A stretch of DNA of 64,000 bases from Clytia hemisphaerica (GCF_902728285.1 NW_027104472.1:999681-1063680); one strand, 5' to 3'; numbered from the stretch's first letter, positions 31,724 to 60,681 are shown. Notes: generated from the letters alone by a model not told the origin. Numbers and translations are program-made.

Positions 31724-32470
31724 ATGGGTAAACTAGAATTGCGACCAAATTTAAAGAGCAAGCACAACCTGGTGCAAGATGATCTGGGCTCGAACACTAT
31801 TCCATTAAAGAAAGCCAACATGTTAGAAGATCCTCAAAGCAGTTTAACAAAACAAAAGACTGAATTGGTTACTTCAAATGTAAAACCAGTTGGATCACTT
31901 CATTTAAACAATTTATTAGGAACTGGTATGAATATCAATAAAGCACCAAAACCAAGTCTCTTTAATAAATCTCTGCTACTTGGAAGCAGTAATCTAGAGA
32001 AAGGAAGCCTAAAGCCAACACTTTTTTGCACTACCAATCTTCTTCCGACAACAAGTTTAGATTTAGTCCAAAAACCTCAAAATGCATCATCATCGATGAA
32101 AGAGGAGAAACCCAAGACAAGCAAGCGGCTTCAAACTAAAAAGAGCAAAAAGAGAAACTCCTTGGAAATTCAAAATCTGAAAGGTCCAAGTAAAGTGACA
32201 AAGGACCATGACGCTGGAAAAATAACAAAGCGAAAGAAAAAGATTGTATCAGACAATAGTCATTCTAAGAAGAAGATCAAGGAAGCACAATTTGAGATTA
32301 TAACTGCCAGTATCAAGGAATTAAAACTGACTGATAATGAATTCAAAAGACAACAACTGGAGGTGATGAGGAATAAGTTGAAAGCTGAGAGTGAAAACCT
32401 GTTTACAGACTCTAAACAAGGAAGCTATGATGCCATCAAGCAGGAAAAAGAGAAAATTATTAAAGCTAAG
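31724..32470 (+). CDS. TEP1: TEP1-like gene exon 1 (start codon, K/S-rich low-complexity N-terminus)
   Basis: ATG in Kozak-like context aaacaATGG. 249 codons ending AAG|gtaaaa. Joins exon 2 in phase 0. Confidence 0.55.
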
Positions 32471-32996
32471 GTAAAATTTGATTTTCTTTGGTCGGAAACT
32501 CACCTTCAATAGTTCAAAACTATATGTTATGACCATTTACAGATAATGTTATTTAAATTGTGTCCAAGTGCATGCTTTTGCCAATGTAGAATAAATGTAG
32601 AGATGTATTTTTTTTTGGCTCTGTAAACCAACAAAAGCTTAAAAATTGATACAGTATTGAGTCTTTGGAATTCCAAACTTGTCCTTTTTATTGATTCATC
32701 CAGATTTTAAACAGCTTCGTTTCCTATGAAAAAGCTAGTTTATCAAAAACTTATATGAACAATTTTATTTTTACAAGCCTCAATTTTGGCTAACACTTTA
32801 GAGCAATTTAAAAACAATCCTAGCCTCCTTTTACTATGTCAATAAAAGAACATTTTACGAACATTTAATCCTTGAAATCACTAAAAAATTTAAACATGAA
32901 CAAAATGAACAAATTTACTCTGATTCTTTATAAAAGAAAAAGTAATTTATCTTAAATTTAGTATACGGTAATTTTTTAATTTTTATTCACTCACAG

Positions 32997-33131
32997 CAAC
33001 ATTTGATCAATATGGTGTCAATGTCATTACTCCATGCACCAAAGATTGGAGATGTTATGGATCAAACAAGAATTGAAATGATGAAAGCAATGAAAGAAAT
33101 GTCAGAAATGGATCCTGAATTCATTCTGAAG
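32997..33131 (+). CDS. TEP1: TEP1-like exon 2 (TROVE start)
   Basis: tcacag acceptor, GTATAT donor. QHLINMVSMSLLHAPKIGDVMDQTRIEMMKAMKEMSEMDPEFILK. Confidence 0.7.
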
Positions 33132-33353
33132 GTATATTTTTTTGCTTAAAATCATCCTAACAACATCATTAAACCAAATACTATATGTAAATATGCTGTC
33201 TCTATTTGAAGAATTCTCCAAACTGCTAAATGCTATATGTTGCATCTGTTGTGTGCCTTTACTATCAGTTGGAAAAAGGGATGATATAGATTTCTATCTG
33301 GGCCATCTAATTTCATTTCCCTCTAACACTGTGTATTATTTTCTTCACCATAG

Positions 33354-33515
33354 CTTGCGCTATACACAAGAAAAGTGTTGAATGTGCGTGTCGTGTCAAC
33401 ATTCATGGTAGCATTTGCTGCTTATGTTCAAGAATGTCGGCCATATTTGAAGAAATATTTCAATGCGTCCATTGTCCTACCATCAGACTGGATTGGAGCA
33501 GCAGAGTTATACCAG
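33354..33515 (+). CDS. TEP1: TEP1-like exon 3 (TROVE)
   Basis: LALYTRKVLNVRVVSTFMVAFAAYVQECRPYLKKYFNASIVLPSDWIGAAELYQ. The LALYTR..LN.R motif is typical of TROVE domains. ccatag acceptor, GTATGC donor. Confidence 0.8.
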
Positions 33516-33707
33516 GTATGCATTTCTGTACAAGAACTCTTTTTGACAGCTTTATTGGAAACTATTCTTGATATTTAACAAACCGAAAATATGATGTTAT
33601 ATGATATGTAAAGGGGGCAAGCTCTGTACTTTTAGGTATTTATTATAGAAAAGTCACACATTCTTAACTAAAAACATTTCAAAATTGAGTCTTTCCTTCC
33701 TTTCTAG

Positions 33708-33878
33708 ACATTTTTTGATTCTACCATCAAATTTGGTTCCATTCCAACTGTATTGAGGAAAGTCATGATCGAAAAGTTCTCTTCATTTGACGAATACCAG
33801 TTAGCCAAATACAACAAAGAGAAGTCCCAAAACAAGGCTAAAGCTGTGACTTTTTACCCTCACATGTATGAATTTATG
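33708..33878 (+). CDS. TEP1: TEP1-like exon 4 (TROVE)
   Basis: TFFDSTIKFGSIPTVLRKVMIEKFSSFDEYQLAKYNKEKSQNKAKAVTFYPHMYEFM. tttctag acceptor, GTGAGT donor. Confidence 0.75.
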
Positions 33879-34265
33879 GTGAGTTTTCAATATATCTTAA
33901 GCCAGAATTTATTTGTAGCCATTTTAAAATCAGTATTACATATTACATATTACATATTACATTTCGGATTTTCAAATTTACTGTCAGTAAATTATGAATA
34001 TGCAAATAAAACTTTTGATAGAATTTGAATTAGATTTGTAATTTTGTGTTCGTTGCAAAGATAATCATGGGTGATAAGGTTTTTTTCAAAATTTTTTCAA
34101 AAAATATTCAATCAAAAGATAGAGCCCCATATTAATCACTTCCTTGAAAAAAAGTTCAACCAGCCAAATTTAAAGCAATGGTATCTATCTATGCAGTATT
34201 TTTGGTTCAGAAAATGTTTCACAATAATGATGAGCTTAATTTTTTTCTGTTTTTTTTTTATCCAG

Positions 34266-34405
34266 CGTTCAGAGAGCCAACTCCTAGACGAAGATGGAGA
34301 CAATATCAAAGAATATGAATTAAAGTCACTCTCCCTGAAACAATTGATTCGTAAATTACACATCAGTCAACCGTCACAGTATGTTATGTGCCTGGTTGGA
34401 AAGAA
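34266..34405 (+). CDS. TEP1: TEP1-like exon 5 (TROVE)
   Basis: RSESQLLDEDGDNIKEYELKSLSLKQLIRKLHISQPSQYVMCLVGK. tttatccag acceptor, AA|GTAAGT donor. Confidence 0.75.
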
Positions 34406-34824
34406 GTAAGTAAAAATTGACTGGTTACAGGACGTCATTTCCATTTAGTCTTTGGCTTCTACCATTTGCTCACATGGTATTTAAAAAAAAAGAAAAAATA
34501 ACTTTCTCCACCTCATGTGCCTTGTGGGCACAAATTAGAAAACATATATATCTGTATTTTTGTAACTTCAACTCAACTATACTACTACCCCAGAAAAATT
34601 TGTAACTTGCACGATAAACTTTTAAAATTGGTTAAAAAATTTAACTGGATTGTATTTCGGAAATATTTTGGGTCCTTTAAAAATGGTTATTTCAAAATTA
34701 ATAGTCTTGCATGCTGGACCATAATAACCTGTAAACTGTCGTATTATCATTATAAATTGCATTCTAAAGGGTTTACCAGAAAGAATATTTTCCTTTAGCA
34801 ATTTATGATTTTCATTTTTTCCAG

Positions 34825-34882
34825 ATATCCGTCAAGTATCCAGGAATTCTACCAATCACATTTGCCTGGCAACTTTGACGAG
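34825..34882 (+). CDS. TEP1: TEP1-like exon 6
   Basis: (K)YPSSIQEFYQSHLPGNFDE. ttttccag acceptor, GTTAGA donor. Phase matches exon 5. Confidence 0.7.
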
Positions 34883-35249
34883 GTTAGATGTTAGAACTAA
34901 TATTGGTTCTGGGAAGGAACCTAGAGTTTCCATTTTCGGGGCTCACACTATGATCTGGAAAGTAGAGGGGTGGAAAATATAGTGACAAAGGAACGTTTGC
35001 GTGGACGGGAGAAGGTTTCGATTTTGACCCTCTCTCTTAAAATGTCCCTATTTCATATTGATTTTGTCCAGAAATGCAGCTATTGAAAGGATGGTAAAAT
35101 GTAAACTTTACTAAGGCATCATTTTTACTTACCTAGAAAAGGTTATAGATTCTGTCTAGCACTCGGCTATACCTTAATAGTTAGAGTTGGTTTGTATATT
35201 TTACAACTCATCCAATGGATTCTCATGTTGATTTTTTTCACATATCTAG

Positions 35250-35349
35250 GGGAGAGCAGGCAAACGAATGAAGTTGAAGACACCAGAAACATGGGAGACA
35301 CAGGTTTCATTGAAAGGAAACAAAGCTACTACTTGGCAAGACTTATTAG
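35250..35349 (+). CDS. TEP1: TEP1-like exon 7 (TROVE)
   Basis: GRAGKRMKLKTPETWETQVSLKGNKATTWQDLL. This is a different frame from the ORF-track 35192..35422. catatctag acceptor, GTATGA donor. Confidence 0.7.
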
Positions 35350-35753
35350 GTATGATGTAAACAGCAGTTCAGTATACAAAGCTCTTCTGTCTCATCGAGA
35401 ACCAAATTCAGCAAAATTTTAAAAACCTTTTTCCTAGTTTGTTGTTTAGAGTCCATTTTTGTCTGAAACACACAAATTTGGTTTGACCAACTTAAAACTG
35501 AAGCAAGCACATTAACTACATTTAGATACAAATTATATTTCTCATTGACAAGGACTTAGATTTATTCGAACTATAGAACGACTCGAACGAAAGAAAAATA
35601 TGGCGTTGGGGTGCTGTGTGCAATCAAGTTTTAGTGAAGCATGACATACTTTCTCATTGAATAAACTGAGGGTTGTGTTCATCAGTTCTTCAAAGATTTC
35701 GCTTAACGAGCTCATTGTTATCAAGCTAAAATATATGTACTCGTTATATTTAG

Positions 35754-35863
35754 ATCACAAGAAATTACCTTTCATGGCAATGTTGAGGAACCTCAGAAAC
35801 ATGATCAGTGCTGGAATGAAAGAGAAATATCATAACATGATTATTCATCGATTGACTGATGAG
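35754..35863 (+). CDS. TEP1: TEP1-like exon 8 (TROVE)
   Basis: (D)HKKLPFMAMLRNLRNMISAGMKEKYHNMIIHRLTDE. tatatttag acceptor, GTATAA donor. Confidence 0.75.
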
Positions 35864-36178
35864 GTATAAATACATAATATACCTTACGGGAACTTACAAT
35901 AATGAATTTTCGCAGGACTAATTTTCACGTGAGCTAAATTTTACGATTATTGTGTACTGTGAAAATTAATTCTGCAACATACGGTTTTTATGTCAAAATT
36001 TCTAGTAAAATGAAAGAATATCGTTCCAGTGTAAAACGTAGAATTAAAAAAATGATTGAACGTAGTTGGGTGGATGGAAGCTAATAAAAAATCTGAATTT
36101 TAACATGATACTCAAATTTAACCAAAGGGTTAAATATGAGGATCTGATAAATCTAATTTTCGAAATTATTTTCCTCAG

Positions 36179-36266
36179 AAATCAGTGAAGAACAGCAAGC
36201 AGTTTCCATTCCGATTTCTGTCAGCTTACGATATTATTGAATTGATGGAAAAGTCTTTGGAAACTG
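36179..36266 (+). CDS. TEP1: TEP1-like exon 9 (TROVE)
   Basis: KSVKNSKQFPFRFLSAYDIIELMEKSLET. ttttcctcag acceptor, GTACGC donor. Confidence 0.75.
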
Positions 36267-36749
36267 GTACGCAACTATTTTATCGAATTTACATTTTCAT
36301 TCTTAATGAATATCTCATGGAAATCGCGGTTCATTTTAGTACCTTTAGAGGTTCTAATAATCACGTTTACCTTTAGATAGCAAATATGTCCCTTTTCGGG
36401 AATCGATATATTCCCTTAATGATTAAAATGATACCTTCCGTTGTACGATTTAAAAAAAAAACCGTTAAGATAATTTTAAAACACCCTGTAGGAATTATTT
36501 TGTATCTTTTGAGTGATTTTCGGGATTTCCAAAAATTCAAAAGTTATTCACCTAATTTAAGCTAACATGGTTTCTACATGTTAACAAAGACGAATGCTCA
36601 CTTAAAGCGAATGTAATTTTAATAATAAGGAAATTATTCATAAAATAAATGGACTGTTTTAATCGGGTGCAGGGTCAACGTATAATAATAATTTGTTTAT
36701 TTCTATTTGCGAACCACGTGACTGGAATTTTCAGTTTTTGTTTTTTTAG

Positions 36750-36813
36750 GTGAAGATTTAGCTTCAGTTTCTTACAAGAAGAACAAAACAAATACCACGA
36801 GATCGAACAGCAA
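36750..36813 (+). CDS. TEP1: TEP1-like exon 10
   Basis: (G)EDLASVSYKKNKTNTTRSNS. tttttttag acceptor, GTAAGT donor. Phase-consistent. Confidence 0.6.
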
Positions 36814-36929
36814 GTAAGTGTTTTTCGTTCGCTTTTACAAAGTTGTTACAGGCTCGTGAGTGATGTACACGTTTTGTTTAATAAGTATATCCGAACTTTT
36901 TTAAGCCTTCGGATGTTCTTAAAAACCTT

Positions 36930-37711: not shown

Positions 37712-37945
37712 GGCCGGGTAGCTCAGTCGGTAGAGCATTCGCCTTACAATCTAAGGTTTGTGGGTTCGATCCCCGGTCACCACCAACTCCTCAGCGGATG
37801 AGTAGCTTAGATTGGGTAATCTGATCTAGGCGGTAAGTTCGATCTCCCAGGTTTAGTGCAAATAGAAAGGGGATAAACTCCCTCACTCCCGGCTCCGCCG
37901 ACAGCCACCGGATGAATTTACTTACTTACTTTACTTATTCTATAA
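37712..37945 (+). mobile_element. tRNA-derived SINE (tRNA-like head + body + (TTAC)n-like tail)
   Basis: Head GGCCGGGTAGCTCAGTCGGTAGAGC...GTGGGTTCGATCCCCGG has A/B-box-like D and T arms, but the anticodon stem cannot pair. About 150 bp unique body follows, then ttacttacttactttacttattc. Sits in TEP1-like intron 10. Confidence 0.55.
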
Positions 37946-38080: not shown

Positions 38081-38261
38081 GCCCTTGTTGTACAGTCATT
38101 CGTTATTGATGCGTTACAAAAAGGCGTTAGAGAAATCCCTGAAGATTTCCACCCTTCACAACATTTCGCCGATTCCAGGGATGACTGTTATCATTATTGA
38201 TATTGATGAAGAATCGTCCTCTCAAATATTGACCAAGAGTATCTCCCCTGTACAACGAAAC
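38081..38261 (+). CDS. TEP1: TEP1-like exon 11 (vWA-like start)
   Basis: (K)PLLYSHSLLMRYKKALEKSLKISTLHNISPIPGMTVIIIDIDEESSSQILTKSISPVQRN. ttttttattag acceptor, GTATGT donor. Confidence 0.7.
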
Positions 38262-38289: not shown

Positions 38290-38446
38290 GTTATACTGTT
38301 GGCGAGAGATCCAGGTTACTGTACCTAGAACGTTATTTAGAGACACTATTTTAAGAAAGCGCTTTGAGAAATCCCTGGATATTTCTATACTCCATAATAC
38401 CTCGCCGATTCCAGGGATGACTGGTTTCATCATCGATATTGACTAA
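38290..38446 (+). pseudogene. Pseudo-exon: partial duplicate of TEP1-like exon 11 inside intron 11
   Basis: The segment translates to RKRFEKSLDISILHNTSPIPGMTGFIIDID*, paralogous to exon 11 YKKALEKSLKISTLHNISPIPGMTVIIIDIDEE. It ends in TAA and has no usable splice acceptor. Confidence 0.5.
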
Positions 38447-39004
38447 GGGTCATAGTTTCCTCACTGGGTGGTTCAAATCCCCTAATTGCCAAACCCCCTA
38501 TATATAAATTTCTCAACCCCCCCATATATAAATTTCTTAGACCCCCCCCCCTTAATAACCAAAGTAGTGAACCCTGGGATAAAATTTTGAATGGGAATGA
38601 CACTGAAAATGATAAATTTATTTGGTAAAAGATTTTACTATATAACCATACCCCCTAAATGCCAAACCCCCTAATAATTGAGACTTTTTCAACCCCCCCT
38701 TAAAGGGCTTGAAGGGTTGTCTGAGAATTTGAAGGCCCCCCTAAACATATGGGGATGAAACTATGAGGGTACCCCACCCGTACGTTTGAAGGATCATTCT
38801 ATTGCTTCGAGTCTCTTTTTTGGTTCAATTATCTACAACATGATCGAAATATTCGGACTCTTACTCTTGCGTGTCACTCCTAACAAGCCTTACTTTTGTA
38901 ATTGACCCCCCCCCCTAAATGGTTTTCGCTATAAAGTGTATTTTTTGTTTCTCGTCAATTCTTGCTACTATTGATAATTATCGATTGTATTTTTTTTTTC
39001 ATAG

Positions 39005-39166
39005 AGTTTGAACATGGGCTTATTGCTTGGTGTAATGTGTAATTTCCATTGTGAAGAAAGTCTCTTCATTTTGAATGATCGAAACAAAGGATTCACCATT
39101 TTGAATAATGTCAACAGAAACAACAATATCATGGATAGTGTCCATGAAGCCATGGAAGAAGCTCAG
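39005..39166 (+). CDS. TEP1: TEP1-like exon 12
   Basis: SLNMGLLLGVMCNFHCEESLFILNDRNKGFTILNNVNRNNNIMDSVHEAMEEAQ. t10-catag acceptor, GTTTGT donor. Confidence 0.7.
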
Positions 39167-39761: not shown

Positions 39762-39836
39762 GGACCCGTAGCTTAATGGTAGAGCAAATGCCCGCGAGTG
39801 GCATGGTTGTGAGTTCGAGTCTCGCCGGATCCGATG
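39762..39836 (+). tRNA. tRNA-like sequence (possible tRNA gene or pseudogene; isotype uncertain)
   Basis: Canonical D arm TAGCTTAATGGTAGAGC. T arm GTGAG-TTCGAGT-CTCGC. Acceptor GGACCCG/CGGATCC has one mismatch. Anticodon stem ATGCC/GGCAT with loop CGCGAGT, but a 2-nt linker after the D stem, so the cloverleaf is imperfect. Confidence 0.4.
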
Positions 39837-40092: not shown

Positions 40093-40197
40093 CATATTTG
40101 GAGACGTGAACCAATCGTGCGTGAACGTAAAGAAGTCAATCAACTTGATGAAGAATTGTGTGATTATTTGGGACAATTTGTTGGTCAACGTCGTGTG
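40093..40197 (+). CDS. TEP1: TEP1-like exon 13
   Basis: HIWRREPIVRERKEVNQLDEELCDYLGQFVGQRRV. tttgaattcag acceptor, GTATGT donor. Phase 0-0. Confidence 0.6.
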
Positions 40198-41809: not shown

Positions 41810-41949
41810 ATTAACAATTTCTACATGGTGGGAACTGGATCAGGGTGGACGAAAGGTGACTACCTGAAGAAATTTGTTGATATTTACCGGAAGGAAGTCA
41901 ATCCAACTACTCTCGTCATTCGACAGTGCATTCAAAGTGATTCATACAT
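41810..41949 (+). CDS. TEP1: TEP1-like exon 14
   Basis: INNFYMVGTGSGWTKGDYLKKFVDIYRKEVNPTTLVIRQCIQSDSY. aattatag acceptor, AT|GTAAGT donor. Too short for the ORF track; supported by phase continuity between exons 13 and 15. Confidence 0.5.
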
Positions 41950-42350
41950 GTAAGTGACGTGTATTTGTATTCTATATTCTTTTCAAGGTTTTATTTTTAC
42001 ATAAGTGTTCCCGTTTCATATCAGATACATGTTTCATATCAGGACAGTGTCTGCCTATTGTTATATTGTGCTGATATAAGCAAAAATTGTTTTCTTTTCC
42101 TTTTTTGACCAATATTGCCTCACATTCGTGTCAATTCAATGTGAAAAAGCTTGTAAATTAAAGTTGATGAGTTAGCAAACGATGTCACTCTTATTTAAAA
42201 ACAAAAGCTTTAAGTCCCTATAATCCCGATAAATTTAAGCTGCAAATTTTCTTAATTTCTCCGTTTCCTATTAGTGGGACCGAATCATTGATTATAGCCT
42301 AAATGCGTTGGTGTCTGAATGTTAATTTAAACTTTTATTCATTTCACCAG

Positions 42351-42413
42351 GAAAAATTGTTTGGATTCAGATTATGACGTTTTTGTCGTTGGATATTCTG
42401 ATCAGGTTCTCAA
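42351..42413 (+). CDS. TEP1: TEP1-like exon 15
   Basis: (M)KNCLDSDYDVFVVGYSDQVL. tcatttcaccag acceptor, AA|GTAAGC donor. Confidence 0.6.
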
Positions 42414-42660
42414 GTAAGCGATTTTAAATTGACGCAATCGTTCCATTAATAAAGTCCAATCAAATTGAAAAAAATCTGGGTAAAAATAGATTTTGGTCTA
42501 ATTGTAATTTTGTTTGGGTGCTCGTCTCTAAAGGTATGTGAACCGGGTGAGCTTTAAAATTGGAGTCTAAAAAAATGATGTTTAACCTTAAGCTCCCAGA
42601 AAATTATTCAACTCTGGGTATTGCCTTAAATGGAAGTTACGAAGATATTCTTGCTTTTAG

Positions 42661-42742
42661 ATACTTGGGTGAGCGTGGGACAGGCAGACAATTGACAGCC
42701 GTGGAAAATATCGATATGACTTTCAATCTCGACGATATTAAG
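42661..42742 (+). CDS. TEP1: TEP1-like exon 16
   Basis: (K)YLGERGTGRQLTAVENIDMTFNLDDIK. Strong acceptor ttcttgcttttag, AAG|GTAAAC donor. This is the only phase-compatible acceptor after the in-frame TGA at 42548. Confidence 0.6.
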
Positions 42743-43416
42743 GTAAACATTCATTCAAACTCTCAACTGATCAGTTTTTCCTAACTTATTTTTCTAAACA
42801 AGTCCTCGAAATGCTCTACCCTATGGGCACGCAACGTCTTATGGTCATTCAATGGACGGCTTTATTTAAGACCTTTGGACGTCCTAGAAACGTACATTAG
42901 ACGTCCAAAAGACGTTTGTGCCCATTGGGAATAGCTTTTTCACCTTATCGGAGAGGACCACTAACGTAGAATTGTGGCAAACTCGGGGTTAAGATATAAC
43001 TTCTAGAAAAAAAACTAACGAGGCTTTTCTTTAGACTTTTTCCCAATAGAAGTATTATATCTAGCCTAGGTTGACAGTTTTTTACTATACGCGGTAACGT
43101 CTCTTTCACTTTGCGACTTTTTCAAGTGTTTTTAAAGCCCATGTTTTCGAACTTTAAGCATTCGGTATTTTGACGTCATTTTAATCTTTCAACCTCTTGC
43201 GTTAACGAAAAAATCGAATTTGCGTCAAAACACTTTTATCCTTTTTCCCCAAAATTCTCAAAGTGAAAGAACTCCCTACAAAATGGACTAAAAGATCCCA
43301 GCTTTTTTTGAATTACTCGCTGAAGGCATCATAGCTTTATTCTAAAAAAATATTACTCAACATTAGTGAATAACCCGTATGTTTTCAATGACCAGATTCA
43401 TCATTTTTTTGATCAG

Positions 43417-43658
43417 GTTCGCCGCAAGAAGCGACTTGCAGATGATTCATCCAAAGTCAAGATTGAGCGTCCTATTCTAGCTTGGAAGACCATACGTGTT
43501 TTCATTTCGTCCACTTTTCGTGACATGCATGGAGAAAGAGATCTGTTGACCAAATACGTTTTCCCAGAGTTAAGATGCTGGTGTTACAACTATTGTTTGA
43601 ATTTGTATGAGGTTGATTTGAGATGGGGAATCACTGAACGACAATCACAATCAGACAA
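43417..43658 (+). CDS. TEP1: TEP1-like exon 17 (DUF4062)
   Basis: VRRKKRLADDSSKVKIERPILAWKTIRVFISSTFRDMHGERDLLTKYVFPELRCWCYNYCLNLYEVDLRWGITERQSQSD. Acceptor is tttttttgatcag at 43417, or possibly gaccag at 43396. AA|GTAAGT donor. Confidence 0.75.
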
Positions 43659-43789
43659 GTAAGTTCTTTCTAAGAAACTTTGCAGTTGAATCTCTCTAAT
43701 TCGATATTCTACTATTCGATACGCTCCATTATTCGATAATATTGAAAGAAACAAAACTCTTCGTAAAAGACACCATACTACCTTTATCG

Positions 43790-48151: not shown

Positions 48152-48730
48152 CTAATGAAATTTATAAGATTGGTTTAACATAAAAATTTGCTTTTGAATT
48201 CACGAGATTGTTATTCCAGTTGTTTTTCAAATCTTGTTTTTAATTCACAAGATTGTTTTTCTTTCCATGTATAAACCTAAAATACTTATTAAGGCTATTA
48301 AGTCACGTGCTCCTGTACTCCCAAAATTCTAGATGGTGCATGTGATTTTTTTACAGACAGAAACACCTTTGGACTAAATTTGTGCTTGAAAGTTATCTGT
48401 TTAAAATATATGTCAGTAAAAGTTTGACTATATAAATCTTGTAAACTTAAGTTTGCGAGTCCCCCCCCCCATATTCAAAAAGGGTAAAAAATAATTTGTT
48501 TTGGGTAAACCCAGAAAGAGAGAGTACCATTAATACATAAAATACACGTTTTTTTCATAAGAACAAACTATACAAGTACATAATACAAGGCTTATAGATA
48601 GTACATTTCCAAAGCAAGATATAAAATATTAAGAACAAGTTATTTTAAAGCGTCATGGACTCTACAACACCCAATTTCTTAGGAAATTGCACAAAAACAC
48701 TCAGAAACATGAGGAATTGAAGAACTTACA

Positions 48731-48926
48731 TGCCGAAATGTTCTCTGTACACAAACCCATATTCCTTTCTTCGATCTTCAAAGAAGCGATGTAAAGTTGC
48801 TTGCTCATATTTTCCGGTGATGAAAGGGATTAGAGAGGTCAGTGAAGGGAAAAGTCCTTTCACTTTCGGAATTTCTTCAAAAGGTTTGACGACGACGTTG
48901 TCTTCTAGGTTTAGTTGGTGAGCACC
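48731..48926 (-). CDS. P450 exon 2
   Basis: (G)AHQLNLEDNVVVKPFEEIPKVKGLFPSLTSLIPFITGKYEQATLHRFFEDRRKEYGFVYREHFG(M). The KYG.IYRE motif is characteristic of mitochondrial CYPs. aataaag acceptor, AT|GTAAGT donor. Confidence 0.75.
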
Positions 48927-50674: not shown

Positions 50675-50911
50675 GCAATTGGAGCTATGTTTGAGTGAAG
50701 TCCAGAAAGCTGATCTTTTCGTCGGTATGTTGGGCGAACGATTTGGATGGGTACCTACCAAATACAAAGTGGAGGATGAAGAGAATCTAGGATGGGTCAA
50801 AGACATGCCAAAAGGATGCTCCATGACCGAGTTGGAAATGAGAGGTTTCTTGAGAGAAGATTCAAATGCATCCAAAGCATTGTTCTTGTTCAGAGATCCT
50901 GAATTTTTGAG
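50675..50911 (+). CDS. TEP1: TEP1-like exon 18 (DUF4062 continued)
   Basis: (K)QLELCLSEVQKADLFVGMLGERFGWVPTKYKVEDEENLGWVKDMPKGCSMTELEMRGFLREDSNASKALFLFRDPEFL. ttctccttttctag acceptor, AG|GTATAC donor. Follows a 7 kb intron. Confidence 0.75.
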
Positions 50912-51594
50912 GTATACGTTTTTTTTTTTAAGAAACACACTTTTAAGAAACATGAGGCTCAGAATGTCTAAAAACTAAGAAACATCTAAGAAACATGCTG
51001 AGGCTGAGAATGAGAAAATAACTAATTTTTTAATTCGTTTTTTTTAAGAACCTTCCAATCCAGCCTTTCATAAGGCTGATTATGTCAAAAAGTTTAGAAA
51101 CATGTAAGAAACATTTAAGGCTCAAAAGGCCGATTTCTTTAAGAAACATCGAGGCTGCTTGGTAAAACTAGTTCTTAAAAAAAAAAAAAACGTGTGTCAT
51201 ATTCAAATTAATAAGAGAAAGAAAGGAGGGGTGGTAAGATAAAACATGCAATCTTTAAAAACTAAAATAGATAATCAGTTGGTTTGAGACATTTTGCCTG
51301 TTGATTCCTTCCAAGGTTCTGAGCAAAACCTCTAAAAATTATTGTCTTTTTCAAAGTTGAGTTCCATTGTTTTCTTACTAAAACAAAAAAAACTTGTAAC
51401 TTATCTTGACTATATCATAAGACAAAAATTATATCTGAACCTGTAATATCATTCATTGTTTTTGAGTTTTTTGAATTTTGAATGCTTGTCATTTTTAAGG
51501 AGAAAAGTGAAAAGAATTGCCTTGGTGTTGAGGGAACATGCTAAAAAAATTTAAATATAATTTGTTTTTCATTTTTTCGATTTTTTTTTACAGT

Positions 51595-51711
51595 GATGTT
51601 CCACCGAAAGTGTTGGACGAATTTGTCACACAAGATTCAACAGCCACAGAACGCATCCAACAATTGAAGGAGTTTATCAAAAGACAAAGGAATGTTCAGC
51701 TAATTGACAAG
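51595..51711 (+). CDS. TEP1: TEP1-like exon 19
   Basis: (S)DVPPKVLDEFVTQDSTATERIQQLKEFIKRQRNVQLID. t10-acag acceptor, AA|GTAGGT donor. Confidence 0.65.
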
Positions 51712-51991: not shown

Positions 51992-52115
51992 TTACCCATG
52001 CAAGTATGGCGGAAAAGTTGATAACAAAGTTTACACAGCCGATCTAGAAGATTTTGGGAGATCTGTGCTAACAAGTGTTTGGGAGATCATCAAAACACAA
52101 TACATTGATACTCAG
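51992..52115 (+). CDS. TEP1: TEP1-like exon 20
   Basis: (N)YPCKYGGKVDNKVYTADLEDFGRSVLTSVWEIIKTQYIDTQ. caattttatag acceptor, GTAGGT donor. Confidence 0.65.
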
Positions 52116-52229: not shown

Positions 52230-54640
52230 TACCCCGGTGGAGGTCCTATAAATTAACCTTTGTCCGTCTGTCCGTCCGTCTGTCCGTCCGTCCGTTAGTT
52301 ACCAGCTTTTCTCGAGATTGGCTCATTAGTTTTTTCTGATTTTTTGCACAATGATGCAAAATGGCAATGCCCAAAATGTGACGGAGCCCGATTTTCGAAA
52401 AAAAATTTTGGGGGGCAAATTTGGGCCAAAAAACGGCTAAAAAACGGGTTTTTTGGACTTTGTGAAAAATTTTAATTTTTTCTGATTTTTTGCGCGAAAG
52501 TAGGGTACCATCATAGGTATAAGATGGTTCAAGCAGATTTTTGCAAAAAAATTTTGTTGGCCCAAAAAACGCACGTTTATCTATAAGAATCACTATTAAT
52601 AAGCATACATCGATGTTCTTAGTCAAATTACTCAATTTTTTTTATGAGATAGATGTTTTTTCTGCTCAAGAGGGCTTACTTTTGAAGAATTTGTGTGTTT
52701 TCGACAGGAAATTTGGGTTGCTTGGGCGTTTTTTATAGAAAAACTGGCCAAATTCGATATTTTTTTATAAGCACATTATCAATTACTTAGGTATTGGCTT
52801 TTCTCGAGATTGGCTCTTTTTTCTTTATGATTTTTTACACAAAGATGCATAACTATAAACCCTTGAATGTGACAGAACCTGATTTTCGAAAAAAAATGTT
52901 TTGGGCCAAAAAACGGCTAAAAAACGGCTTTTTTGGACTTTGTGAAAAATTGGATCATTAATTTTTTCTGATTTTTTGCACGAAAGTAGGGTACCATCAT
53001 AGGTATAAGATGGCTCAAGCAGATTTTTGCAAAAAAATTTTGTTGGCTCAAAAAACGCATGTTTATCTATAAGAATCACTATTAATAAGCATACATCAAT
53101 GTTCTTTGTCAAATTACTCAATTTTTTTTATGAGATAGATGTTTTTTCTGCTCAAGAGGGCTTACTTTTGAAGAATTTGTGTGTTTCGACAGGAAATTTG
53201 GGTTGCTTGGCGTGTTTTTATAGAAAAACTGGCCAAATTCGATATTTTTTTATAAGCACATTATCAATTACTTAGGTATTGGCTTTTCTCGAGATTGGCT
53301 CTTTCATTCTTTATGATTTTTTACACAAAGATGCATAACTATAAACCCTTGAATGTGACAGAACCTGATTTTCGAAAAAAAATGTTTTGGGGCAAATTTG
53401 GGCCAAAAAACGGCTAAAAAACGGCTTTTTTGGACTTTGTGAAAAATTGGACCATTAATTTTTTCTGATTTTTTGCACGAAAGTAGGGTACCATCATAGG
53501 TATAAGATGGCTCAAGCAGATTTTTGCAAAAAATTTTGTTGGCTCAAAAAACGCATGTTTATCTATAAGAATCACTATTAATAAGCATACATCAATGTTC
53601 TTAGTCAAATTACTCAATTTTTTTATGAGATAGATGTTTTTTCTGCTCAAGAGGACTTACTTTTGAAGAATATGTGTGTTTAGACATGAAATTTTGGTTG
53701 CTTGGCGTGTTTTTATAGAAAAACTGGCCAAATTCGATATTTTTTTATAAGCACATTATCAATTACTTAGGTATTGGCTTTTCTCGAGATTGGCTCTTTC
53801 ATTCTTTATGATTTTTTACACAAAGATACATAACTATAAACCCTTGAATGTGACAGAACCCGATTTTCGAAAAAAAATGTTTTTGGGCAAATTTGGGCCA
53901 AAAAACGGTTAAAAAACAGGTTTTTTGGACTTTGTGAAAAATTGGATCATTAATTTTTTCAAATTTTATGCATAAAAGTAGGGTACCATCATAGGTAAAA
54001 GATGGCTTAAGCAGATTTTTGCAAAAAAAATTTGATGGCTCAAAAAACGCATGTTTATCTATAAGAATCACTATTAATAAGCATACATCAATGTTCTTTG
54101 TCAAATTACTCAATTTTTTTATGAGATAGATGTTTTTCTTTTCTCACGAGTGTTTAGACAGGAAATTTTGGTTGTTTGGCATGTTTTTATTGAAAAACTG
54201 GCCAAATTCGATATTTTTTTATAAGCACATTATCAATTACTTAGGTATTCGATTGATTGGCTCTTTCATTTTCTACGATTTTTTGCATAAAGATGCATAA
54301 TTATAAACCCTCAATGTGACGGAGCCCGAGTTTTGGAGAAAAAAATTTTGGGGTATAGTTCAGCTAAAAAACGGCCATAAAAGGGTTTTTTGGACTTAGT
54401 GAAATATTGGACCATTGTTTTTTTCTGATTTTTTGTATGAAAGTAGATAAAAGATGGCTCAAGCAGACTTTTGTAAAAAATGAATTTTTCAGCTCAAAAA
54501 AAGCATCTTTATCAGTAAGAATCACTATTAATAAACATACATCAATGTTCTTAGCCAAATAACTCAATTTTTTGGAGATGTTTTTTTGCTCACGAAGTCT
54601 TGAATATGAAAGAACATTTCAAGAGCATGAAATTTTGGTT
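52230..54640. repeat. Tandem satellite, about 490 bp unit x5 (plus (GTCCGTCC)n at 52261-52296), in TEP1-like intron 20
   Basis: ttttctcgagattggctc recurs at about 52307, 52799, 53284 and 53779, with a diverged unit near 54250. Near-identical ORFs (MSNLTKNIDVCLLIVILIDK...) recur in each unit on the minus strand. Confidence 0.85.
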
Positions 54641-55079: not shown

Positions 55080-58000
55080 AAGAAATCCTGAAGTAGGATT
55101 TAAAGTAGAGTTTCTTTAACTCGAACCTCTTTATAAATCGAATGTCTCCTTAACTCAAACAAGTTTTCTCATACCTGAGTTAGCAATGCCTTATGAAACT
55201 TACTCCATAACTCAAAATTTCCCTCACTCGAACAAATTCGTGTTCCTCGTGCTTGTTCGACCTATTGATACTGTATTCATTTTCTTCTATATAAATCGAA
55301 TGTCTCCTTAACTCAAAATTTCCTTCACTCGAACAAATTCGTGTTCCTCGCGCTTGTTCGACCTATTGATACTGTATTCATTTTCTTCTATATAAATCGA
55401 ATGTCTCCTTAACTCAAAATTTCCTCACTCGAACAAATCGTGTTCCTCGTGCTTGTTCGACCTATTGATACTGTATTCATTTTCTTCTATATAAATCGAA
55501 TGTCTCCTTAACTCAAAATTTCCCTCACTCGAACAAATTCGTGTTCCTCGTGCTTGTTCGACCTATTGATACTGTATTCATTTTCTTCTATATAAATCGA
55601 ATGTCTCCTTAACTCAAAATTTCCCTCACTCGAAAAATTCGTGTTCCTCGTGCTTGTTCGACCTATTGATACTGTATTCATTTTCTCTATATAAATCGAA
55701 TGTCTCCTTAACTCAAATTTCCCTCACTCGAACAAATTCGTGTTCCTCGCGCTTGTTCGACCTATTGATACTGTATTCATTTTATTCTATATAAATCGAA
55801 TGTCTCTTAACTCAAAATTTCCCTCACTCGAACAAATTTCGTGTTCCTCGTGCTTGTTCGACCTATTGATACTGTATTCATTTTATTCTATATAAATCGA
55901 ATGTCTCCTTAACTCAAAATTTCCCTCACTCGAACAAATTCGTGTTCCTCGTGCTTGTTCGACCTATTGATACTGTATTCATTTTCTATATAAATCGAAT
56001 GTCTCCTTAACTCAAAATTTCCTTCACTCGAACAAATTCGTGTTCCTCGCGCTTGTTCGACCTATTGATACTGTATTCATTTTCTTCTATATAAATCGAA
56101 TGTCTCTTAACTCAAAATTTCCCTCACTCGAACAATTTCGTGTTCCTCGTGCTTGTTCGACCTATTGATACTGTATTCATTTTCTTCTATATAAATCGAA
56201 TGTCTCCTTAACTCAAAATTTCCCTCACTCGAACAATTTCGTGTTCCTCGTGCTTGTTCGACCTATTGATACTGTATTCATTTTCTTCTATATAAATCGA
56301 ATGTCTCCATAACTCAAAATTTCCCTCACTCGAACAAATTCGTGTTCCTCGTGCTTGTTCGACCTATTGATACTGTATTCATTTTCTTCTATATAAATCG
56401 AATGTCTCCATAACTCAAAATTCCCTCACTCGAACAAATTCGTGTTCTCGTGCTTGTTCGACCTATTGATACTGTATTCATTTTCTTCTATATAAATTGA
56501 ATGTCTCCTTAACTCAAAATTTCCCTCACTCGAACAAAATCGTGTTCCTCGTGCTTGTTCGACCTATTGATACTGTATTCATTTTCTTCTATATAAATCG
56601 AATGTCTCCTTAACTCAAAATTTCCCTCACTCGAACAAATTCGTGTTCCTCGTGCTTGTTCGACCTATTGATACTGTATTCATTTTCTTCTATATAAATC
56701 GAATGTCTCCTTAACTCAAAATTTCCCTCACTCGAACAAATTCGTGTTCCTCGTGCTTGTTCGACCTATTGATACTGTATTCATTTTCTTCTATATAAAT
56801 CGAATGTCTCCTTAACTCAAAATTCCCTCACTCGAACAAATTCGTGTTCCTCGCGCTTGTTCGACCTATTGATACTGTATTCATTTATTCTATATAAATC
56901 GAATGTCTCCTTACTCAAAATTTCCCTCACTCGAACAAATTCGTGTTCCTCGTGCTTGTTCGACCTATTGATACTGTATTCATTTTATTCTATATAAATC
57001 GAATGTCTCCTTAACTCAAAATTTCCCTCACTCGAACAAATTCGTGTTCCTCGTGCTTGTTCGACCTATTGATACTGTATTCATTTTATTCTATATAAAT
57101 CGAATGTCTCCTTAACTCAAAATTTCCCTCACTCGAACAAATTCGTGTTCCTCGCGCTTGTTCGACCTATTGATACTGTATTCATTTTATTCTATATAAA
57201 TCGAATGTCTCCTTAACTCAAAATTTCCCTCACTCGAACAATTCGTGTTCCTCGCGCTTGTTCGACCTATTGATACTGTATTCATTTTCTTCTATATAAA
57301 TCGAATGTCTCCTTAACTCAAAATTTCCCTCACTCGAACAAATTCGTGTTCCTCGTGCTTGTTCGACCTATTGATACTGTATTCATTTTCTTCTATATAA
57401 ATCGAATGTCTCCTTAACTCAAAATTTCCCTCACTCGAACAAATTCGTGTTCCTCGCGCTTGTTCGACCTATTGATACTGTATTCATTTTATTCTATATA
57501 AATCGAATGTCTCCTTAACTCAAAATTTCCCTCACTCGAACAAATTCGTGTTCCTCGTGCTTGTTCGACCTATTGATACTGTATTCATTTTATTCTATAT
57601 AAATCGAATGTCTCCTTAACTCAAAATTTCCCTCACTCGAACAAATTCGTGTTCCTCGTGTGTGTTCGAGCTATTGATACTGTATTCATTTTCTTCTATA
57701 TAAATCGAATGTCTCCTTAACTCAAAATTTCCCTCACTCGAACAAATTCGTGTTCCTCGTGCTTGTTCGACCTATTGATACTGTATTCATTTTCTTCTAT
57801 ATAAATCGAATGTCTCCTTAACTCAAAATTTCCCTCACTCGAACAAATTCGTGTTCCTCGTGCTTGTTCGACCTATTGATACTGTATTCATTTTATTCTA
57901 TATAAATCGAATGTCTCCTTAACTCAAAATTTCCCTCACTCGAACAATTTCGTGTTCCTCGTGCTTGTTCGACCTATTGATACTGTATTCATTTTCTTCT

Positions 58001-58600
58001 ATATAAATCGAATGTCTCCATAACTCAAAATTTCCCTCACTCGAACAAATTCGTGTTCCTCGTGCTTGTTCGACCTATTGATACTGTATTCATTTTCTTC
58101 TATATAAATCGAATGTCTCCATAACTCAAAATTTCCCTCACTCGAACAAATTCGTGTTCCTCGTGCTGTTCGACCTATTGATACTGTATTCATTTTCTTC
58201 TATATAAATCGAATGTCTCCTTAACTCAAAATTTCCCTCACTCGAACAAATTCGTGTTCCTCGCGCTTGTTCGACCTATTGATACTGTATTCATTTTATT
58301 CTATATAAATCGAATGTCTCCTTAACTCAAAATTTCCCTCACTCGAACAAATTCGTGTTCCTCGTGCTTGTTCGACCTATTGATACTGTATTCATTTTAT
58401 TCTATATAAATCGAATGTCTCCTTAACTCAAAATTTCCCTCACTCGAACAAATTCGTGTTCCTCGTGCTTGTTCGACCTATTGATACTGTATTCATTTTC
58501 TTCTATATAAATCGAATGTCTCCTTAACTCAAAATTCCCCTCACTCGAACAAATTCGTGTTCCTCGTGTGTGTTCGAGCTATTGATACTTAATTGTATTC
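55080..58600. repeat. Tandem satellite, about 100 bp unit x about 34, in TEP1-like intron 20
   Basis: Unit cgaatgtctccttaactcaaaatttccctcactcgaacaaattcgtgttcctcgtgcttgttcgacctattgatactgtattcattttcttctatataaat, with periods of 99-101 bp. Related motifs also at 40740-40830 and 45420-45470. Confidence 0.9.
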
Positions 58601-58615
58601 ATTTTCATCCTTTAG

Positions 58616-58819
58616 AACAATGAGAATGTCGAAACAAGCACCTTGTCGATTGCAGACAAACACGTGACCTTTGCCAAAGAAAATGGCGACCAATTTGTCG
58701 GACGAAAGTCGTTATTAACCAAAGTATCCTCTCTGTTACATGACGAGTCTTCCGTCAGCGTCGGCAAAAACGTTGTCGGTATTGTCGGAAAAAGTGGATC
58801 CGGAAAATCAGCCTTTATG
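58616..58819 (+). CDS. TEP1: TEP1-like exon 21 (NACHT Walker A)
   Basis: NNENVETSTLSIADKHVTFAKENGDQFVGRKSLLTKVSSLLHDESSVSVGKNVVGIVGKSGSGKSAFM. P-loop GKSGSGKS. tcctttag acceptor, ATG|GTAAGT donor. Follows a 6.5 kb satellite-filled intron. Confidence 0.85.
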
Positions 58820-59163
58820 GTAAGTTGAAATGGAAACTCATTATGAGAACATGTGCATTTGTCGAATGGTTTTTTAGAGTCGATATATTTTACGTGGATA
58901 GCCCATTTAACTAGATTTTTTAGGCAGTCTTTCGATTGTTTTCACGGGGCCAACAGCCTCGGCTAACTAACTGAAAATAACATTGGAATAACCGAAATTT
59001 CGACCCATTGCTCCTTAAGTTGTTTGCTTTTTAAAAGAAAGATGGATATTTTCCAATATTGTTTTTCGTTGAGATGGTGTATTAAATAAGACAATCCCTG
59101 AAATATGTAGCATTCTACCAATCCTTTTAGTTTGACTGACCGTTGAGTTATCTTGTGTTTCAG

Positions 59164-59315
59164 GCCAAACTTGTGCAAAACATGAAAGTGCCCGCGTGTT
59201 GTTATTTCTCGGAGGCTGGTACCGAGTATCAACATTTGTCAGTCATGTTGAAATATATCTTTCATGAAATCAATACTGAATTTGATGTTGGAATGCCGTT
59301 ACCTGAAAACGAACG
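59164..59315 (+). CDS. TEP1: TEP1-like exon 22 (NACHT)
   Basis: AKLVQNMKVPACCYFSEAGTEYQHLSVMLKYIFHEINTEFDVGMPLPENE. tgtgtttcag acceptor, CG|GTAAGG donor. Confidence 0.8.
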
Positions 59316-59714
59316 GTAAGGCTTTTTAACAACTTTTTTCTGTGTTCCATTTTTCTTGGTCCACTTTCAACTTCTAAGTTCGAAGGATATATTAATTCAT
59401 CGTTTTCGGGGATACCTTTAGCGGGGGACTATATTTTCCCCAATACTGATTTATGGGCTAGCCAAATATGTTAATGCCAAACATATTGAAAAATGTCTCA
59501 CTCCAACTCTACCTCCCCTCTACCATGATGAACAAATTTGCAAATTAAATTGGATATTACTCAAGAAATGGTAGACCGAATTAAAACATTGCACGCTTAT
59601 ATTGAACAAACGTTATTTGAAACCCGCTAGGCTTTCATTTTGTGACTAAAAAGTATCGATCATATCTATGAGATTTTAACTCTATTTATTTTCATTTTTG
59701 CTCTTCCTTTTTAG

Positions 59715-59868
59715 TGAACAAAAAGTGCAATTTGAAAACTTGTTGAAATCTGTCTCAAAAGTGTTGAGGCGTTCGCATCGTTATTACATTTTCGTTGACG
59801 GGTTAGAGAGCATGGAGAAAGGGCGTTACGCCCATGTCTTGGATTGGATTCCTGATCGTATCCCGCAG
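59715..59868 (+). CDS. TEP1: TEP1-like exon 23 (NACHT Walker B)
   Basis: (R)EQKVQFENLLKSVSKVLRRSHRYYIFVDGLESMEKGRYAHVLDWIPDRIPQ. cctttttag acceptor, GTAAGA donor. Confidence 0.8.
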
Positions 59869-60017
59869 GTAAGAAGGTAAATTTATTAAGGAAAGGTAGG
59901 TAGCTTTCACAAGACAAACAAACTGATTGAATTCAGAAGTATTACAAATTTCAAAACATTTTTTGAGAAGGAAGATTAAAAAATTTTGTGTTCTCTTTGT
60001 TCTGATATAATAAACAT

Positions 60018-60403
60018 ATCTTTAACTAAAGTCTGTCTCAAAATAATTTGCAGCTGAGACAAAAATGGCTGTAACTTTTGATAGAATTCGAATCATGTTG
60101 CGGTTTTGTGCTCGTTAAAAAGATATTCGTGAGTGGAATATTATCAAGTAAAAAAATTTGGAGAAAAAAGGAAAATGAAAATGAAAAATGAAGAAGAAAA
60201 AAAATCAACTTCTTGTAGAAATGGGGTATAGTTACCATTTTCACAGGAGTAATTCTTCAATCTTAGATCATCATCACTGTTTTTTCAAAAAATTTCATTC
60301 AATCAAAAGATATCAAACAAAGTTTATTGCAACTTTTCTAATTCTATCAAAAGTTACAACCATTCTTGTCTCAGCTGCAAATTATTTTGAGACAGACTTT
60401 AAT
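60018..60403. mobile_element. Second copy of the 716-1430 foldback family (in TEP1-like intron 23)
   Basis: About 90% identity to 730-990 over 60030-60290, plus a shorter inverted arm at 60300-60400. Confidence 0.6.
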
Positions 60404-60498
60404 CATTATTTGATGTGTGCCTGGGCATATGCTTATAAGGATTATGCCTAAGTAAAATAAAAGAATCAGTATATAATATAACCATGTTTATTTTCCAG

Positions 60499-60681
60499 GG
60501 AATTTATTTAGTCATATCATGCTTGGAGAACGGACCTGTTTCCAGATTATTGAGTAATCATCAGCAATGCTTGGCGAACATTAAACTTGGTCCCATGGAA
60601 CATCCCGACCGCACTGTGTTTGTCAGAAACATTTTACAGAAGTATGGTAAAAGTCTGGATGAATCTCCCTTCAACAATCAG
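60499..60681 (+). CDS. TEP1: TEP1-like exon 24 (NACHT). Gene continues beyond window.
   Basis: GIYLVISCLENGPVSRLLSNHQQCLANIKLGPMEHPDRTVFVRNILQKYGKSLDESPFNNQ. The GKxL...FNNQ motif is typical of TEP1/NWD NACHT. ttattttccag acceptor, GTAGGA donor. Cumulative CDS to this point is 3921 nt, in frame. Confidence 0.8.

Follow-up and report, generated by a model that had tools for sequence, protein, structure and literature searches.

A predicted TEP1 orthologue in the hydrozoan Clytia hemisphaerica with TROVE, vWA-like, TIR-like, and NACHT-type modules in one 24-exon gene model

The stretch of Clytia hemisphaerica DNA analyzed here (the window; 64,000 nucleotides) very probably contains, between 31724 and 60681, the first 24 coding exons (aa 1 to 1307) of an intact TEP1 orthologue. 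C. hemisphaerica is a hydrozoan, and the gene is an ordinary orthologue of a well-known one, TEP1, also called telomerase protein component 1 or vault protein p240 (Q99973 in humans). The spliced model lies on the plus strand, opens with an ATG whose first base is 31724, ends with base 60681 (CAG/gtagga), and comprises 3921 nt, or 1307 codons, with 0 stops. All of its 23 introns are GT-AG, with sizes from 192 to 7016 nt. Since stop codons occur in the plus-strand frames at a frequency of 0.057, the probability of 1307 stop-free codons by chance is ca. 3e-34.

The model was rebuilt independently of the exon list in the initial annotation, from homology matches, GT-AG sites, and reading-frame bookkeeping. 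A tblastn search with 13 TEP1 relatives and a profile HMM (63 relatives), applied to stop-free plus-strand segments, gave 21 collinear blocks from 32991 to 60687. Most junctions were set by scoring in-frame GT/AG pairs, and the others by reading of the sequence and an intron scan for phase-neutral exons, which added exons 10, 13, and 15 and shifted the acceptor of exon 16. Exon 10 had no homology match of its own; it is required to bridge the phase 1 end of exon 9 and the phase 2 start of exon 11. The rebuild returned the same 24 in-frame exons, length, and coordinates as had been assembled by hand (Table 1); a crude draft concatenation of exons had already given a homology E-value of 3e-137. 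The splice junctions, as predicted from sequence and homology, yield an exon structure that is collinear with the TEP1 relatives. The 7-kb intron 17 harbors a nested P450 gene on the opposite strand, which is 98 to 100% identical to an annotated C. hemisphaerica protein (NCBI).

Table 1. Predicted coding exons of the C. hemisphaerica TEP1 model (all plus strand; a slash marks the exon border, intron letters in lower case)
Exon	Position	Length (nt)	Residues (aa)	Assignment	Evidence and borders
1	31724..32470	747	1-249	Lys/Ser-rich low-complexity N-terminus; TROVE match starts in last codons	predicted ATG, context aaacaATGG; donor AAG/gtaaaa
2	32997..33131	135	250-294	TROVE	HMM positions 109-157, E 5e-8; tblastn; cag/CAA ... 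AAG/gtatat, phase 0
3	33354..33515	162	295-348	TROVE, LALYTR at start	HMM E 3.6e-23; tblastn identity up to 60%; GT-AG, phase 0
4	33708..33878	171	349-405	TROVE	HMM E 5.4e-17; donor ATG/gtgagt
5	34266..34405	140	406-451	TROVE	HMM E 1.3e-13; tccag/CGT ... GAA/gtaagt
6	34825..34882	58	452-471	TROVE	HMM E 3.8e-7; phase 2 entry, as exon 5 donor
7	35250..35349	100	472-504	TROVE	HMM E 9.8e-20; up to 84% identity (Solemya protein)
8	35754..35863	110	505-541	TROVE, LPFMAMLRNLRN	HMM E 7.2e-20; phase 1 join
9	36179..36266	88	542-570	TROVE, FPFRFLSAY	HMM E 2.3e-10; donor CTG/gtacgc, read from sequence
10	36750..36813	64	571-591	weakly conserved linker within TROVE match	tttttttag/GTG ... CAA/gtaagt
11	38081..38261	181	592-652	TROVE end, vWA-like start	HMM E 1.7e-16; attag/GCC ... 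AAC/gtatgt
12	39005..39166	162	653-706	vWA-like	HMM E 1.2e-5; catag/AGT ... CAG/gtttgt
13	40093..40197	105	707-741	vWA-like	best-scoring phase-0 AG...GT open exon in 2.6-kb gap
14	41810..41949	140	742-787	vWA-like (DUF5920)	HMM E 0.0012; donor CAT/gtaagt
15	42351..42413	63	788-808	vWA-like (DUF5920)	HMM positions 684-709; caccag/GAA ... CAA/gtaagc
16	42661..42742	82	809-836	vWA-like end	acceptor cttgcttttag/ATA, read from sequence
17	43417..43658	242	837-916	linker, DUF4062/TIR-like first part (RVFISSTFRDMHGERD; R871)	HMM E 6.3e-41; 50-67% identity (tblastn); aligned to PDB 11gz_A
18	50675..50911	237	917-995	TIR-like second part, R939, putative catalytic Glu E971	HMM E 7.4e-32; E971 codon 50835-50837
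19	51594..51710	117	996-1034	TIR-like C-terminal helices	HMM E 2.5e-6; aligned to 11gz_A
20	51992..52115	124	1035-1076	TIR-like end	HMM E 9.2e-13; donor CAG/gtaggt
21	58616..58819	204	1077-1144	NACHT-type NTPase start, Walker A GKSGSGKS	HMM E 2.3e-8; Pfam nSTAND1/NACHT; K1140 codon 58805-58807; ctttag/AAC ... ATG/gtaagt
22	59164..59315	152	1145-1194	NACHT	weak HMM match, E 0.39, at expected positions 1041-1098; strong sites tttcag/GCC ... ACG/gtaagg
23	59715..59868	154	1195-1246	NACHT, Walker B YYIFVDGLE	HMM E 7.3e-8; D1223 codon 59797-59799; donor CAG/gtaaga
24	60499..60681	183	1247-1307	NACHT end, ...YGKSLDESPFNNQ	HMM E 1.1e-16; ttccag/GGA ... CAG/gtagga; closes in phase 0 at donor, no stop codon

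In a blastp search, model aa 187 to 1307 aligned with aa 140 to 1276 of a ray TEP1 in a single HSP of 646 bits. The top matches were the TEP1 proteins of Branchiostoma (3e-137) and Hemitrygon and an unnamed Solemya protein with TEP1 Pfam domains, followed by many vertebrate TEP1 proteins; TROVE-only (PF05731-only) proteins were also among the protein database matches. That database held no identical or near-identical TEP1, the best match reaching 47% identity over part of the length. Pfam arranged the spliced protein as TROVE, DUF5920 (the vWA-like region of TEP1), DUF4062, and a NACHT-type P-loop NTPase, which agrees with the TEP1 domain order originally proposed, and the best relatives are named TEP1. 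The motifs cited in that proposal were all located (LALYTR at aa 295, LPFMAMLRNLRN at 509, FPFRFLSAY at 550, RVFISSTFRDMHGERD at 863, GKSGSGKS at 1134, YYIFVDGLE at 1218, GKSL at 1296, and FNNQ at 1304). Given the in-frame GT-AG joins throughout and the one HSP to ray TEP1, all the modules appear to reside on one predicted polypeptide.

Vertebrate TEP1 shares with the Clytia model the equal order of TROVE, vWA-like/DUF5920, DUF4062 (TIR-like NADase), and NACHT, a collinear alignment of ~1100 residues at 31 to 36% identity, and the conserved catalytic Glu and Walker A and B motifs. It differs at the N-terminus, where the 240 aa of the Clytia protein are unrelated and of low complexity and Pfam did not detect the repeat family of the mammalian TEP1 N-terminus, and at one active-site position, discussed below. 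The C-terminal half, WD40 repeats included, falls outside the window.

The TROVE match (PF05731) scored 310.3 bits (cut-off 23) over aa 241 to 625, covering profile positions 12 to 442 of 442. The region after it is collinear with the TEP1 relatives and matched DUF5920 (PF19334) marginally, with 27.5 bits versus a cut-off of 27, at aa 723 to 832; a sequence search of the PDB with this region retrieved nothing relevant to a vWA fold, and we infer from its sequence that it is vWA-like. A TROVE module followed by a vWA-like region is also found in Ro60 (TROVE2) and Tetrahymena telomerase p80, and weak PDB matches to "TROVE domain-containing protein" (9l5y/9kop) were obtained. However, Ro60 and p80 end after the vWA domain, whereas the Clytia reading frame goes on into DUF4062 and NACHT, and a Ro60/TROVE2 identity (TROVE and vWA only) was rejected for this reason.

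DUF4062 (PF13271) was matched at aa 863 to 951 with 53.7 bits, and the region aligned with PDB 11gz_A ("Telomerase protein component 1," the TIR-like NADase domain of human TEP1) with an E-value of 7.6e-60, without a gap over the exon 17/18 junction. At a chain offset of 893, human E1008 (catalytic), R908, and R976 correspond to model residues E971, R871, and R939, while R954 is replaced by a lysine (K917); thus, the catalytic Glu and two of the three active-site Arg residues are kept. A DUF4062 TIR-like domain adjoining a STAND NTPase is likewise present in NWD1, NWD2, and NPHP3 and in bacterial DUF4062 defence proteins (Swarozyc), which, in contrast to the Clytia protein, have no TROVE or vWA module. 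Bacterial DUF4062-NACHT-TPR proteins were among the matches, with ~33% identity to the query across its C-terminal half. An identity of the NWD1/NWD2/NPHP3 type, with DUF4062 at or near the N-terminus and no TROVE, was rejected, as DUF4062 is preceded in frame by 862 residues, TROVE among them.

A STAND P-loop NTPase directly follows DUF4062 at aa 1094 to 1293. A check of the 1307 aa with HMMER against Pfam had been proposed to return TROVE, DUF4062, and NACHT; it did so for the first two, while NACHT (PF05729) reached 25.0 bits at E 1.9e-5 across profile positions 2 to 165 of 167, 1.7 bits short of the 26.7 cut-off, and the profiles nSTAND1 (28.3 bits, cut-off 27.1) and NPHP3_N (26.6 bits, cut-off 24.8) exceeded theirs. 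PF05729 is carried by many of the TEP1 relatives in the alignment. The model has both Walker A and Walker B motifs. By alignment, residues required for the NADase and NTPase reactions are conserved.

The arrangement could in principle reflect two adjacent genes, a Ro60/p80-like TROVE-vWA gene (exons 1 to 16) and an NWD1/NPHP3-like DUF4062-NACHT gene (exons 17 to 24), as both TROVE-only proteins and DUF4062-NACHT proteins without TROVE (NWD1, NWD2, and NPHP3; bioRxiv 10.64898/2026.05.01.722283) are known. We consider this extremely improbable: exon 16 ends in a phase-0 donor (AAG/gtaaac) 674 nt ahead of a phase-0 acceptor (gatcag/GTT), no ATG precedes the DUF4062 motif in the open frame that runs into exon 17 (ORF 43366-43662, GTG start), one HSP of TEP1 relatives spans the exon 16/17 junction, and both halves have the same TEP1 proteins as best matches. 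The exons thus behave as parts of one predicted gene, with Pfam matches in both the TROVE and the NACHT regions. Very unlikely, too, is a truncated TEP1-like gene of ~1315 aa without WD40 repeats, in which the donor at 60681 is unused. Read-through there adds just VGIDLFIN before a stop (60706-60708), no further TEP1 exon, helical or WD40, was detected in the 3.3 kb from 60682 to 64000, and a 424-aa ORF occupies the minus strand at 62028-63302. Yet the donor is strong, exon 24 ends at the exact point where the relatives run on past ...SPFNNQ, and the NACHT module, lacking a helical lid, would be left incomplete. Moreover, two introns of the gene already measure 6.5 and 7 kb, and a nested opposite-strand gene sits in one of them, so that an intron of >3.3 kb holding another ORF would be unremarkable. 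As the model of an intact TEP1 gene ends at a strong phase-0 donor with no more TEP1 exon before 64000, the helical and WD40 parts are expected beyond the window.

A somewhat greater, though still low, probability attaches to the same gene having different exon details, that is, another or an extra 5' exon, skipping of exon 13, or a path from 41936 to 42600 in place of exons 14-15-16. The least secure points of the model are where exon 1 starts and whether exon 13 belongs to it. Within the open frame 31712-32509, the predicted ATG is the first that follows a stop, but TEP1-relative alignments reach only aa 187 to 249 of this exon, and aa 1 to 186 are without homology support. Exon 13 is the least certain internal exon because it is phase-neutral, and its inclusion, which brings the total to 3921 nt, is worth just 8 bits of TEP1-profile score (1201.4 to 1209.4); the path from 41936 to 42600 is likewise open and in frame. 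Nevertheless, the 24-exon model scored best (1209.4 bits, compared with 1201.4 and 1188.1 bits for the alternatives), the path through the exon 16 acceptor at 42661 lies 21 bits above that in-frame alternative, and the splice sites chosen are stronger than the alternatives. For the peptide encoded in the intron ahead of exon 16, no significant profile match of its own was obtained, and its DNA is not similar to exon 15.

TROVE binds vault RNA, and TEP1 is a vault component in metazoa (PMC3762200); in mammals, TEP1 is located in vault particles and binds vault and telomerase RNA (PMC3762200; bioRxiv 10.64898/2026.05.01.722283). Human TEP1 is also an NADase, the only active one among the human proteins in that preprint, and its E1008A mutant loses activity (bioRxiv 10.64898/2026.05.01.722283). 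All functions suggested here for the Clytia protein are carried over from mammalian TEP1. The TROVE and vWA-like module would bind small structured RNAs, which in mammals are vault RNA and telomerase RNA, and would anchor TEP1 in the vault particle. NADase activity would depend on oligomerization driven by the adjacent NACHT NTPase, and the C-terminal WD40 propellers, outside the window, may serve in regulation or sensing, as they do in STAND proteins of the APAF-1 kind.

We lean towards the view that TEP1 in cnidarians works as an active NADase of the TIR-like kind; E971, R871, and R939 are retained, and so are the Walker motifs of the NACHT module. The same preprint already describes DUF4062 as widespread in Metazoa (bioRxiv 10.64898/2026.05.01.722283), and an active cnidarian NADase would therefore extend a published idea rather than constitute a new one. 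If this view is correct, the common ancestor of cnidarians and bilaterians would already have possessed an NAD+-cleaving vault module, and vault and TEP1 function could be studied in Clytia as a tractable early-branching model.

The window is AT-rich (GC content of 31-39%). From 31.7 to 60.7 kb, the ORFs of the plus strand are short pieces bearing recognisable motifs of TEP1 (telomerase protein component 1), as is consistent with a eukaryotic gene rich in introns. The first database query, made by crudely concatenating those ORF pieces that were visible, already retrieved proteins annotated as "telomerase protein component 1". The best matches were those of Branchiostoma belcheri (3e-137) and Hemitrygon akajei (9e-125). 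Next was a protein of Solemya velum that has no name but shares the TEP1 Pfam domains (6e-121), and numerous TEP1 proteins of vertebrates came after it. Bacterial DUF4062-NACHT-TPR proteins also matched, with similarity confined to the C-terminal half of the concatenated query.

To rebuild the gene, we combined tblastn with 13 relatives, a profile HMM, scoring of in-frame GT/AG pairs, and direct reading of the sequence. The plus-strand HSPs obtained by tblastn were strictly collinear from 32994 to 60744, with none further on, and when the profile (63 relatives, length 1789) was run against every plus-strand segment free of stops, it gave 21 exon matches, all collinear, at profile positions 109 to 1211. 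Scoring every in-frame GT/AG pair between adjacent matches settled most of the junctions. The 64-nt exon 10 (36750-36813), required because the frame must pass from phase 1 to phase 2, was identified by reading the sequence, as were the 63-nt exon 15 (42351-42413) and, at 42661, the correct acceptor of exon 16. For the gap at 39.2-41.8 kb, the best-scoring phase-neutral exon turned out to be one of exactly 105 nt (exon 13, 40093-40197). The assembled model begins at the ATG at 31724, finishes at the donor after 60681, and comprises 24 exons (3921 nt, 1307 codons, no stops) separated by introns of 192 to 7016 nt, all of them GT-AG; its splice junctions are predictions from sequence and homology. 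Stops occur here with a frequency of 0.057 per codon, which puts the chance of 1307 open codons at about 3e-34, and the GC content is 39% in the exons versus 34% in the introns. The start codon is a tentative assignment, amino acids 1-186 having gained no support from homology. The initial annotation, in which the exons had been assembled by hand, had arrived independently at the same exon count, length, codon total, and end coordinates, and all the motifs quoted in it are present in the rebuilt protein.

Two other splice paths were weighed against the 24-exon model, which scored 1209.4 bits with the TEP1 profile. Omission of exon 13, the least certain internal exon, lowered the score by 8 bits, to 1201.4, and this predicted exon was retained. 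A path joining 41936 to 42600, which skips exon 15 and extends exon 16 upstream, is open and in frame; it scored 1188.1 bits, 21 fewer, and its extra peptide had neither a profile match of its own nor DNA similarity to exon 15. It was rejected as the main isoform. The path is permitted by an open frame just upstream of the exon 16 acceptor (42560-42660), which encodes ...NYSTLGIALNGSYEDILAF, loosely similar to the ...DVFVVGYSDQVLK of exon 15; this stretch may be due to chance or be an old relic. Intron 11 holds, just downstream of exon 11, a degenerate partial copy of that exon (38310-38450, about 75% DNA identity) that encodes ...EKSLDISILHNTSPIPGMTGFIIDID and then a stop, probably a decayed tandem exon duplication.

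The spliced protein (amino acids 187-1307) aligned with ray TEP1 (amino acids 140-1276) in a single HSP of 646 bits and 33% identity, so that the alignment spans the TROVE-vWA/DUF4062 junction and both long introns; other relatives aligned with comparable collinearity, each in one piece or two. The Pfam search proposed in the initial annotation, carried out on the conceptual 1307 amino acids, placed TROVE and DUF4062 above their cut-offs (see the table), and DUF5920, in the vWA-like region, marginally so. In the stretch of the NACHT domain claimed there, nSTAND1 and NPHP3_N were both above cut-off, and the Pfam NACHT profile itself fell slightly below its cut-off, with nearly the entire profile covered (E 1.9e-5). 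The Walker A lysine (K1140) and the Walker B aspartate (D1223) are both present. For the vWA-like region, a sequence search of the PDB gave a sole match at chance level (E 1.6).

Domains of the Clytia TEP1 model (amino acids) and repeats and tRNA-like sequences of its introns (window positions)
Feature	Position	Strand	Score or unit	Cut-off or matches
TROVE (Pfam)	241-625		310.3 bits	23
DUF5920 (Pfam)	723-832		27.5 bits	27
DUF4062 (Pfam)	863-951		53.7 bits	24.7
nSTAND1 (Pfam)	1094-1227		28.3 bits	27.1
NPHP3_N (Pfam)	1128-1240		26.6 bits	24.8
NACHT (Pfam)	1129-1293		25.0 bits	26.7
Tandem array 1	52305-54573		495-bp unit x 4.7 copies	89% matches
Tandem array 2	55203-58589		101-bp unit x 33.7 copies	97% matches
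tRNA-like sequence, intron 10	37712-37785	plus	Rfam tRNA, 32.6 bits	
tRNA-like sequence, intron 12	39762-39833	plus	Rfam tRNA, 43.6 bits	

Among solved structures there was a single strong match, 11gz_A ("Telomerase protein component 1"), a domain of human TEP1, and the alignment passed without a gap over the junction of exons 17 and 18, two exons separated by 7 kb of genomic DNA. DUF4062 has been shown to be a TIR-like NADase; in human TEP1, E1008 is catalytic, and R908 and R976 contribute to the activity (bioRxiv 10.64898/2026.05.01.722283). With a chain offset of 893, all four named human residues (R908, R954, R976, and E1008) land on the right letters of 11gz_A, and they align in that order to R871, K917, R939, and E971 of the model. 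The catalytic residues of the NADase are intact in the predicted hydrozoan protein.

A Ro60-like protein was ruled out because the frame goes on into DUF4062-NACHT, and an NWD/NPHP3-like one because TROVE sits ahead of DUF4062. The locus is an ordinary orthologue of the well-known animal gene TEP1 in a sequenced, annotated genome, and every TEP1-defining feature that can be checked within the window is found in the predicted protein, Pfam NACHT with a score slightly below its cut-off. The initial annotation was right in both its observation and its TEP1 interpretation. The protein search returned no Clytia TEP1, and among the matches listed, lengths did not exceed about 1400 amino acids, which suggests that full-length TEP1 entries may be absent from the protein database.

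The last exon of the model, exon 24, closes in phase 0 with the donor CAG/gtagga, precisely where the relatives go on, and read-through past this donor would add eight residues before a stop. In the remaining 60682-64000, searches for further TEP1 exons gave only noise, both with the TEP1 profile at very lenient thresholds and by tblastn, with E values of up to 50 allowed and C-terminal portions from 14 relatives as queries. Since two introns of the gene measure 6.5 and 7 kb, one of them with a complete opposite-strand gene, we infer that it most likely continues beyond the window, where a further 1300 or so plus-strand codons would be expected to encode a helical domain and WD40 repeats. Where its next intron would be, the minus strand carries an uninterrupted ORF of 424 amino acids (62028-63302) that begins like a signal peptide and includes a Pro/Gly-rich stretch. 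This ORF had no Pfam family and no match in a word-indexed search; exhaustive phmmer found 37 unnamed relatives of 130-450 amino acids (best E 1.5e-35, 39% identity), and the eight that were scanned gave no significant match to Pfam. It appears to represent an uncharacterised protein family and is uninformative as a pointer to the end of TEP1.

The 7,016-nt intron 17 houses, on the minus strand, a complete-looking mitochondrial-clan cytochrome P450 gene (45572-48150). A 260-amino-acid ORF within the intron is a P450 by Pfam (140 bits) and shares 99% identity with [quoted passage not shown], a protein of 423 amino acids that maps to four minus-strand blocks, from 48150 to 45572, at 98-100% identity. 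This match assigns the window to the hydrozoan Clytia hemisphaerica. A further minus-strand ORF (48726-48863) has the look of another exon, nearer the N-terminus and missing from the annotation, and the nested gene probably reaches to about 48863. Most of the 6.5-kb intron 20 consists of two tandem arrays, the 101-bp one of which accounts for the strongly negative skew, in both GC and AT, between 56 and 58 kb. The tRNA-like sequences in introns 10 and 12 may represent tRNA genes or else SINEs derived from tRNA; the latter was called tRNA-Ser (cga) by ARAGORN, though it is merely 74 nt long.

Elsewhere in the window, an intronless minus-strand ORF of 440 amino acids (3956-5278) resembles, by eye, a Shaker-type voltage-gated K+ channel, its translation having a T1/BTB-like N-terminus, S4 arginines, and a GYGD filter. 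Two open segments on the same strand (14083-14650) carry HD-domain motifs, including ...GWTHHDIKNVESVSDHMYRM..., and, judged by eye, resemble parts of an HDDC2-like gene, as its exons. A long 12-bp microsatellite (10330-10840), reading (SINQ)n in one frame, yields spurious ORFs of 130-170 amino acids.

TEP1 is a vault component in metazoa, and its TROVE domain binds vault RNA (PMC3762200). By analogy with mammalian TEP1, the Clytia protein would most likely bind small RNAs through its TROVE/vWA-like half, which would also dock it in the vault, and cleave NAD+ by the TIR-like domain upon oligomerisation driven by the NACHT NTPase; gating would be by the WD40 repeats, a step presented as speculation by the authors of bioRxiv 10.64898/2026.05.01.722283. 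The TEP1 family, its architecture, and its wide distribution across animals are already established, and the importance of the present result is mostly limited to annotation: a 24-exon gene can be recovered exactly by careful manual reading. It also documents, for a hydrozoan, a TEP1 with a predicted complete TROVE-vWA-TIR-like-NACHT series, which gives comparative studies of vault function a useful point of reference.
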